The notes under the pieces were generated by a model. That model was given only the letters and a program-made list of their open reading frames with translations, was not told the DNA's origin and searched no databases. Shown one piece after another: positions 18,562 to 18,658 of a stretch of 64,000 bases of DNA. A program made the translations under genes and the position numbers. Source of the stretch: an uncultured bacterium (GTDB taxonomy: Bacteria > Patescibacteriota > Minisyncoccia > UBA6257 > 2-01-FULL-56-20); contig CAWHOC010000016.1 in NCBI GenBank assembly GCA_963830935.1, forward strand, positions 13,852 through 77,851. The letters run 5' to 3'. Every line of letters begins with the position of its first letter. Within the stretch, counting starts at the first letter, position 1.

Positions 18562-18658
18562 GAAAACCTAGGCCATCGCTGTCGAGCGAGTGGACGTTCT
18601 CCCACGGGACTTCCGTTGGTCGCTACGTCGGAGCGAGGCAGTGATGGCCTAGGTTTTC
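18562..18658. repeat. structured repeat, family C copy 1: conserved ~53-nt core closed by a copy-specific 20-bp helix
   Basis: Arms gaaaacctaggccatcgctg and cagtgatggcctaggttttc. Core GAGCGAGTGGACGTTCTCCCACGGGACTTCCGTTGGTCGCTACGTCGGAGCGA, ~90% identical to 49863-49915. Confidence 0.6.

Follow-up and report, generated by a model that had tools for sequence, protein, structure and literature searches.

Terminator-like hairpins with locus-specific arms and a conserved, composite apex at gene ends in Paceibacteria

We analysed a 64 kb stretch of contig CAWHOC010000016.1 (hereafter the window; 53 % GC) from a member of the Paceibacteria within the Candidate Phyla Radiation (CPR), the proteins of which have their closest named homologues in 'Candidatus Paceibacterota' and 'Minisyncoccia'. 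The window carries two copies of a hairpin element, at 18562-18658 (copy 1) and 49835-49943 (copy 2), each consisting of a conserved core closed by a long stem of locus-specific sequence. Comparison of relatives shows that the whole element comes and goes as a unit where convergent genes meet, and that a 23 nt tip is gained or lost independently of the rest and with precision. The two copies are one instance of a lineage-wide architecture, in which unrelated, terminator-like arms carry a conserved apex. The reading that we favour, in which we place roughly even confidence, is that they belong to a low-copy family of ∼70-110 nt intergenic hairpins of Paceibacteria that are terminator-like, marked by a protein, and gained and lost over time.

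Two copies with a common core and unrelated arms

The 53 nt core is a composite of a 30 nt apical domain (termed H30), which continues the outer stem, and a separable 23 nt cassette that sits exactly in the H30 loop. Both copies are given on the + strand, which is the sense of the core, and their parts are as follows.

18562-18658, +: copy 1, whole element, GAAAACCTAGGCCATCGCTGTC - GAGCGAGTGGACGTTCTCCCACGGGACTTCCGTTGGTCGCTACGTCGGAGCGA - GGCAGTGATGGCCTAGGTTTTC
18562-18583, +: copy 1, 5' arm GAAAACCTAGGCCATCGCTGTC, outer end A-rich
18584-18600, +: copy 1, 5' half of H30, GAGCGA + GUG + GACGU + UCU
18601-18623, +: copy 1, 23 nt cassette CCCACGGGACTTCC-GTT-GGTCGC, missing from the orthologous element of L053-L055
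18624-18636, +: copy 1, 3' half of H30, U + ACGUC + G + GAGCGA
18637-18658, +: copy 1, 3' arm GGCAGTGATGGCCTAGGTTTTC, TTCGGG following; final 10 nt shared with the last codons and stop of the DoxX gene (- strand)
49835-49943, +: copy 2, whole element, ATAGGTAGAAAAATAAAGGAGAGGTATT - GAGCGAGTGGACGTGCCCCACGGGACTTCCTTCGGTCGCTTACGTCGGAGCGA - AATACCTCTCCTTTGTTTTTCTACTTGT
49835-49862, +: copy 2, 5' arm ATAGGTAGAAAAATAAAGGAGAGGTATT, A-tract and GC stem
49863-49878, +: copy 2, 5' half of H30, beta subtype (...GACGU GC)
49879-49901, +: copy 2, 23 nt cassette CCCACGGGACTTCC-TTC-GGTCGC
49902-49915, +: copy 2, 3' half of H30, UU ACGUC G GAGCGA
49916-49943, +: copy 2, 3' arm AATACCTCTCCTTTGTTTTTCTACTTGT, GC stem and T-tract, touching the tRNA-Arg 3' end

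The cores (18584-18636 and 49863-49915, 53 nt each) are identical in 48 of 54 aligned columns (89 %; alignment A2), the differences from copy 1 to copy 2 being TCT versus GC, GTT versus TTC and T versus TT; the chance expectation of the first 31 core nt within the window is 0.00. The closing stem of copy 1 pairs 18562-18583 with 18637-18658 over 22 bp with one G.U, and that of copy 2 pairs 49835-49862 with 49916-49943 over 28 bp with one U.G, whilst the arms of the two copies have no sequence in common. An earlier note on this DNA had already described a core of ∼90 % identity between arms that are unrelated yet near-perfectly paired, and in this it was right. Its boundaries were accurate for the core of copy 2 but placed that of copy 1 (as 18582-18634) 2 nt too far to the left, and the stems that it gave as 20 and 24 bp are in fact longer. 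Its treatment of the 53 nt core as one conserved unit does not hold, given the separable cassette.

Further copies were found outside the window. A third (L001, the same as L039) lies between rpmE (+) and a response regulator gene (-) in another Paceibacterota metagenome-assembled genome, and a fourth locus (L045/L037) lies between sodA and fmt. Thus four independent loci are known, all at gene ends, and at three of them the neighbouring genes converge. Alignment A2 comprises six copies (L068, a seventh, has the stem of L045); across these, 98.5 % of outer-stem cells are paired and 17 of the 20 outer-stem pairs have changed on both sides, so that pairing is kept between unrelated sequences; these values were reached by none of 500 shuffles, and slid controls pair at 39-53 %. 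As the earlier note had proposed, the element is therefore not a miniature inverted-repeat transposable element (MITE) with conserved terminal inverted repeats. The core also gave no match to any known insertion sequence (IS) end.

In every copy the 5' arm is A-rich at its start, a GC stem follows, and the 3' arm is T-rich at its end. T-rich 3' arms and tails are present on both strands for copy 2, L001 and L045, and on the + strand for copy 1 (GGTTTTCTTC). As read from the sequence, the elements show the GC-rich hairpin followed by a U-tract that is expected of a terminator, but not a loop of ∼3-8 nt on a stem of 5-14 bp, as their apices measure 30-53 nt and their stems 22-28 bp. Plain terminators of the same genome have the same style of arm with loops of 3-5 nt (e.g. 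25076-25118 and 53438-53473).

Gain and loss at orthologous gene junctions

The genes beside the two copies are the following.

17942-18544, +: C-terminal open reading frame (ORF) of enolase, upstream neighbour of copy 1, same sense as the core
18649-19107, -: DoxX-family gene, convergent neighbour of copy 1, stop codon at 18649-18651
49130-49657, -: NTPase_I-T (DUF84) gene, downstream of copy 2 on the - strand
49942/3-50014, -: tRNA-Arg(TCG), 3' end abutting copy 2

Copy 1 lies between the 3' ends of the enolase (+) and DoxX (-) genes, its 3' arm covering the last three DoxX codons and the stop. Copy 2 lies between tRNA-Arg and the DUF84 NTPase gene, both on the - strand, its 3' arm meeting the tRNA-Arg 3' end as the earlier note had stated; the same note's description of both copies as intergenic stands for each of them, apart from the overlap of copy 1 with the end of DoxX.

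Orthologous junctions of relatives were retrieved via DoxX and fmt homologues, and at two loci both filled and empty sites were found, as is expected of a MITE. Between eno (or 2-Hacid_dh) and DoxX, no element or hairpin is present in L049-52, L056-58 and L060-62, where the spacers measure 9, 13 and 17 nt; L053-55 have H30 only, and the window and L048 have H30 with the cassette. The stem in L053-55 is a diverged form of the copy 1 stem (AAAACCGCTCCTGTC / GACAGGGGTGGTTTT), in which changes in one arm are compensated in the other, matched indels included, and the core reads GAGCGAGTGGACGTTCT-TACGTCGGAGCGA, i.e. the core of the window less exactly CCCACGGGACTTCCGTTGGTCGC. Between fmt and sodA, the element is absent from L067 and L070-73, where the genes overlap; L068/69 have H30 only, on the same stem as L045/L037, and L045 and L037 have H30 with the cassette. 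Flanking proteins are 84-89 % identical between genomes that are polymorphic for the whole element and for the cassette. The sequence TTCG stands on both sides of the fmt/sodA insertion, with no equivalent at eno/DoxX. As relatives thus show no-element, H30-only and H30-plus-cassette states, we distinguish three layers in the element: arms, H30 and cassette. For the site of copy 2 we found no orthologous empty site, as synteny around the DUF84 gene is not kept in relatives, and a covariance model of the element returned no copies beyond the known sites in 336 kb of relatives.

Several observations were made on the neighbouring sequences. The enolase gene of the window is split into overlapping ORFs (17404-18033 and 17942-18544), pointing to a frameshift that may be a sequencing error or mark a pseudogene; in relatives, enolase is a single ORF of 398-402 aa. 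The 180 nt spacer between copy 2 and the DUF84 gene contains GC-rich hairpins at 49741-49765 (CCTTGAGAACC..GGTTCTCAAGG) and 49781-49803 (GGAAGGGGCAG.CTGCCCCTTCC), with no Rfam match. In L059 (10430-10620; ENA ERZ25039472 contig_111759), a gene for a 99 % identical DoxX protein has a tRNA gene as its neighbour, without the copy 1 element; this contig has many split genes and may be an error-prone long-read assembly.

Structure and strand of the apical domain

In our model of H30, the two GAGCGA hexamers would face each other antiparallel as G.A, A.G, G-C, C-G, G.A and A.G, forming a two-fold pseudo-symmetric, non-canonical helix that would contain two tandem G.A steps. Above this, GUG is predicted to lie opposite G (a 3x1 internal loop), followed by a putative 5 bp helix GACGU/ACGUC and a loop consisting of UCUU or, in filled copies, of UCU, the cassette and U. 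RNAfold formed the ACGU helix in both copies with the GTT cassette and in H30 alone. The only substitutions within H30, C4>U and C46>U in L037, give U.G and G.U wobbles in the model. Two subtypes can be told apart: alpha (...ACGTTCT[cassette]TACGT...), comprising copy 1, L053, L045, L037 and L068, and beta (...ACGTG(C/T)[cassette]TTACGT...), comprising copy 2 and L001, the two beta copies having in common the inner stem AGGTATT/AATACCT despite their different loci and genomes. A pseudoknot pairing AGCGA(2-6) with UCGCU(37-41) in addition to GACGU/ACGUC was considered and rejected as geometrically implausible, as it leaves a 3 nt linker across 10 bp and 0-1 nt on the other side.

Mismatches in the helices of the six aligned copies are unevenly distributed between the strands: read on the core-sense strand, they comprise nine G.U cells (eight independent events) versus one A.C, and the probability of at least eight of nine being G.U under equal expectation is ∼0.02. 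This 8:1 excess favours the core-sense strand as the single-stranded form, which may be RNA or else extruded or lagging-strand DNA, as the bias separates neither from the other.

The 23 nt cassette occurs in unrelated hosts

The cassette was sought in one metagenome scan with the pattern CCCACGGGACTTCC-N(2-5)-GGTCGC, genome and metagenome scans alike requiring 20 exact bases. The scan returned 45 loci, of which about four, with gaps of 2, 4 or 5 nt, are chance coding matches; L002, L028, L030 and L044 were set aside as such, in helicase or other genes. The remainder, ∼40 genuine non-coding copies, fall into 38 distinct contexts and ∼7 flank classes, on contigs with GC contents of 0.38-0.48, 0.42-0.46, 0.57, 0.61 and 0.59-0.70, versus 0.50-0.53 in Paceibacteria. 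The central NNN is variable (GTT, TTC, TTT, TGC, CAG, TTA and TAC), and a natural variant, GGTCAC, is found in L010.

In class B, the host is a tandem, REP-like (repetitive extragenic palindrome-like) repeat of ∼90 nt on high-GC contigs. Six filled and ten empty paralogues differ by a clean 23 nt indel atop the hairpin CCCCTCTCCC/GGGAGAGGGG, and the filled copy closes the array at four or more loci. Contigs with tandem arrays of a REP-like unit of ∼145 nt, which contains several palindromes, are listed here; in each array the cassette is confined to the last unit, beside the 3' end of a convergent gene.

L006, L012, L026, L032 (9880-10660), L034, L035: high-GC contigs with REP-like arrays, cassette in the last unit only

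Taken at face value, the indel of class A follows TCT and consists of [cassette]+C, and that of class B follows CTC and consists of T+[cassette minus last C]; what both insertions have in common is thus the 22-mer CCCACGGGACTTCC-NNN-GGTCG, the target sharing one flanking base with it. In class C the cassette makes up one branch of a structured, dispersed repeat of ∼190 nt, class E is an sRNA-like 3' region ending in its own terminator, and in class F the cassette lies antisense in the rpsU-yqeY spacer.

On its own the cassette folds weakly: minimum-energy structures differ with NNN and z-scores are ∼0, the only recurring option being CC..GGG-ACUU-CCY..GG, and a stable autonomous fold was rejected on these grounds. 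Cassettes are enclosed by 14.5 pairs on average versus 8.9 in random windows, which is a weak contrast. Protein coding was likewise rejected, as indels between copies break the frame and the 'DRRKSRG' ORFs are simply the translated cassette. An all-against-all comparison of ORFs within 2.5 kb of the 45 loci found no protein family common across classes, except def/fmt and ABC ATPases at unrelated positions. One low-GC contig with a cassette (L041) also carries a group I intron at 5100-5297 (Rfam, 76.5 bits).

Other hairpins of the same architecture

Two further families, M3 and M4, have conserved apices on unrelated terminator-like stems in the same genomes, from which we conclude that this architecture is general in the lineage. 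The M3 apex (TCCAGGCAGATGAYCGTTC) is present three times in the window and also in L056, L057 and L066; its 19 nt conserved part, TCCAGGCAGATGA(C/T)CGTTC, has CGCC/GGCG as its closing pairs, the A-tract/T-tract stems beneath being otherwise unrelated.

36818-36876, +: M3 copy, window
51392-51447, +: M3 copy, window, abutting tRNA-Ala (51449-51522)
49061-49123, -: M3 copy, window
L056 1346-1364 and 7306-7324; L057 1589-1607; L066 20201-20219: M3 copies, relatives

M4, at 55782-55912 of the window, has a 35 bp perfect stem and a 61 nt apex that folds into two small hairpins; in L066 (2307-2418), the same apex less 11 nt (CTTGGCTCTCG) sits on a different stem of 31 bp. A third hairpin, M2 (21226-21312), has a 33 bp stem and a 21 nt apex and is also found in L049 (7844-7930), L050, L051 and L052 (alignment A4). 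Its apex and innermost arm positions are exact reverse complements between L049/L050 and L051/L052 within flanks that are 100 % identical, indicating a recent DNA inversion of the hairpin tip.

Two other features of the window were noted in passing. The hairpin at 24928-24977 (L049 4855-4904, L053 6378-6429) has a 14 bp stem (TTGAAGCGAGTGCG...) and a 22 nt apex; relatives differ by a compensatory change in its small inner helix, from GAGC/GCUC to GAGU/ACUC, and the 5' arm of the hairpin holds AGCGAGTG, as does H30. At 15626-15699 there is a tRNA-like gene to which ARAGORN assigns no anticodon and which scores only 37 bits with the Rfam tRNA model.

Database searches and known terminators

A scan of the window with Rfam 15 at gathering thresholds found only tRNAs. 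At relaxed thresholds the best matches to copy 1 were miRNA-precursor models, on the long stem only (24 bits versus a threshold of 180), so that covariance models assign the element to no known family at either setting. Rfam likewise returned nothing at the 23-mer in 20 + 6 other loci, pattern scans of IMG/VR gave 0 matches, and a BLAST comparison of the core with PLSDB and INPHARED yielded nothing beyond chance matches of 18-23 nt. A 14-mer searched on either strand, as RNA or DNA, appeared in no paper of the literature searched, and keyword searches of the literature found nothing on such elements. An origin as an rRNA or tRNA mimic, or as filler copied from a universal RNA, was also rejected, as the alignment of its modules to the E. 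coli rrnH operon was in no case better than that of shuffles.

Amongst known elements, bidirectional intrinsic (Rho-independent) terminators are similar in their succession of A-tract, GC stem and T-tract, in their location between convergent genes or after a tRNA, and in arms that are free to vary as long as they pair. They differ in that the stems here measure 22-35 bp and bear a conserved, structured apex of 30-53 nt in place of a 3-8 nt loop, in that the same apex recurs at different loci and in different genomes, and in that the element is insertion-polymorphic. The predicted tandem G.A pairs recall the k-turn-type motifs of box C/D RNAs; the element, however, has no RUGAUGA/CUGA boxes, its G.A pairs would abut the stem without a 3 nt bulge, and its GUG bulge would have the reverse polarity.

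Interpretation

As RNA of the core sense, the element could act as a terminator or as a hairpin protecting 3' ends at the ends of genes, and the symmetric, GA-rich H30 apex would be a recognition site for a protein, possibly a dimeric one. Candidates for making new copies or cassettes would be gene conversion between paralogues, template switching at hairpins, or a trans-acting enzyme. Repeated gain and loss of the cassette at the same position of H30 could proceed by gene conversion between paralogous H30 sequences, over 17 + 13 nt of identity, and would need no dedicated enzyme; gene conversion of H30 cannot account for how the cassette first reached each of the unrelated host sequences.

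Several points weigh against a terminator-like, protein-marked hairpin. Stems of 22-35 bp with apices of 30-53 nt are far from canonical terminators, such stems would be substrates for RNase III, and a consensus terminator scan, which demands a loop of 3-8 nt, did not call the elements. The core of copy 2 is antisense to both of its flanking genes, and no partner protein was identified for the element. Folded by itself, the 53 nt core is no more stable than its shuffles (z = +0.6 to -0.7), and there is no double compensatory change inside H30 or the core; the inner structure of H30 is thus a model and not a demonstrated fold. The invariance of the other 20 nt of the cassette amongst metagenome matches was imposed by the search pattern and is in part a matter of ascertainment. 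Lastly, the flipped apex of M2 shows that DNA-level processes act on such palindromes; as these can also keep arms perfect, arm covariation alone does not establish a functional RNA. The earlier note's view of the element as a functional RNA helix is accordingly borne out in the conserved pairing of the flanks and the G.U bias of the core-sense strand, but not in a core that is no single unit and folds like its shuffles.

The same observations bear on the possibility of a purely DNA-level, selfish palindrome with no RNA role, akin to REP/REPIN elements or MITEs, in which H30 or the 23-mer would be a single-stranded DNA hairpin site for an HUH/Y1 or other recombinase, gene ends would merely tolerate insertion, and template switching or intra-palindrome recombination would keep the arms perfect. 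We regard this as less probable, though as the likeliest of the alternatives. Like REP/BIME/REPIN elements and MITEs (Correia, ERIC, RUP), the element is a short, non-coding, intergenic palindrome that is present or absent among relatives with flanking proteins of 84-89 % identity; repeats of this type are often found at gene ends and sometimes serve as terminators or RNA stabilizers, and amongst the hosts of the 23-mer, class B is a REP-like tandem repeat in its own right and class C a dispersed repeat. Precise 23 nt indels in two unrelated hosts, the inverted apex of a sister hairpin, the possible 4 nt direct repeat TTCG at fmt/sodA, the inner stem shared by the beta copies at different loci, and an orientation that does not follow local transcription (that of the core in copy 2, and of the cassette in class F in the rpsU-yqeY spacer) all speak for it. 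However, REPs and MITEs conserve their arms or terminal inverted repeats, whereas this element conserves its centre and has arms peculiar to each locus, leaving no terminal inverted repeats at all, and eno/DoxX has no consistent target duplication. In place of the same palindrome in many copies, as in REP/REPIN families, the arms differ and there are two copies in 64 kb, with none added by the covariance model in 336 kb of relatives, and the nested cassette has no counterpart. No transposase, RAYT or other shared protein family was seen amongst the genes near the copies, though no genome-wide search for RAYTs was made, and the 8:1 G.U bias on one strand requires a strand-specific single-stranded form. 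The 'peel and paste' transposition of IS200/IS605 elements resembles the precise gain and loss, the lack of an obvious target duplication and the single-stranded top of an extruded hairpin, but 23 nt are too short to hold the subterminal left- and right-end hairpins, and the bases 5' of the insert (TTCT^ or TTC^ in class A, CTC^ in class B) give no common 4-5 nt target; TnpA was not seen amongst the genes near the copies, again with no genome-wide search for it.

At the RNA level, the 53 nt core might instead function as a free-standing structured RNA (a ribozyme, or a ligand- or protein-binding non-coding RNA), with the long stem as nothing but its closing helix. A conserved apex between variable paired flanks, the strand bias of wobble pairs and the high sequence conservation of H30 across genomes would suit this, and small self-cleaving ribozymes (hammerhead, twister, minimal HDV-like) are similarly ∼50 nt long with variable closing helices, some of them near tRNAs, as is one copy here. 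We nevertheless consider it improbable: no Rfam model matches, those of all self-cleaving ribozymes included, there is no hammerhead, twister or HDV signature or other catalytic core on either strand, and 23 of the 53 core nt, close to half, are dispensable in relatives at two loci. Moreover, the core alone is no more stable than shuffles, the copy next to a tRNA is on the strand opposite to it, a promoter scan found no promoter-like site beside copy 1 and none convincing for copy 2, and the positions are 3' ends of genes rather than 5' untranslated regions. More remote still, and in our view very improbable, is an orphan stem-loop guide RNA of a TIGR-Tas-type system with Nop-domain proteins, systems of this type being common in CPR bacteria. 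Stem-loop tigRNAs have variable palindromic stems, with conserved box motifs and conservation only beside the stem; their units measure ∼54 nt, a protein dimer binds their symmetric motifs, and the loop sometimes bears a further hairpin (PMC12045711; bioRxiv 10.64898/2026.09.09.750476). The element resembles this description in its CPR hosts, variable palindromic stems, unit size, stem-adjacent motifs, pseudo-two-fold symmetry and optional loop hairpin. It differs in that its interior, where the spacers would be, is invariant between copies and in that its copies are solitary rather than arrayed. The published rule calls for box C (CNA), a 9 nt spacer and box D (YG), twice, no more than 15 nt apart and with palindromic stem flanks; inspection of the core by hand on both strands gave one chance interval and never a pair, and the gene lists for the 10 kb around the orthologous loci contain no Nop-domain gene. 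We therefore disfavour this candidate.

For the cassette alone, a bolder proposal can be made, which we put forward tentatively and think unlikely: the 22-24 nt unit (Y)CCCACGGGACTTCC-NNN-GGTCG(C) may be a micro-cassette that is written into, or removed from, hairpin tops by a shared or transferred trans-acting machinery. Its targets would be the tops of terminators, REP-like repeats and other structured repeats in very different bacteria, CPR episymbionts included, and the apices of H30, M3 and M4 would be further cargo of the same process. Such a machinery would explain the precise filled and empty alleles in three unrelated host sequences, and the identity of the 20 nt that the search demanded across 38-70 % GC.

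Taken together, the elements fit amongst intergenic palindromic or terminator-like elements, whilst the cassette is unexplained and potentially new. If our favoured reading of terminator-like, protein-marked hairpins is true, CPR bacteria draw some of their terminators from a stock of copied, modular hairpins, the apex of which is probably read by a protein, and this would offer a handle on the punctuation of transcription units and on RNA 3'-end biology in organisms that cannot be grown in isolation. More unusual is the cassette, an identical short sequence nested in hairpins that are unrelated and belong to distant bacteria; its filled and empty alleles are clean, no gene is associated with it, and searches of databases and literature gave no match. 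It marks either a widely transferable binding site or a mechanism of a new kind that edits hairpin tips, and the three-state alleles make both ideas directly testable.

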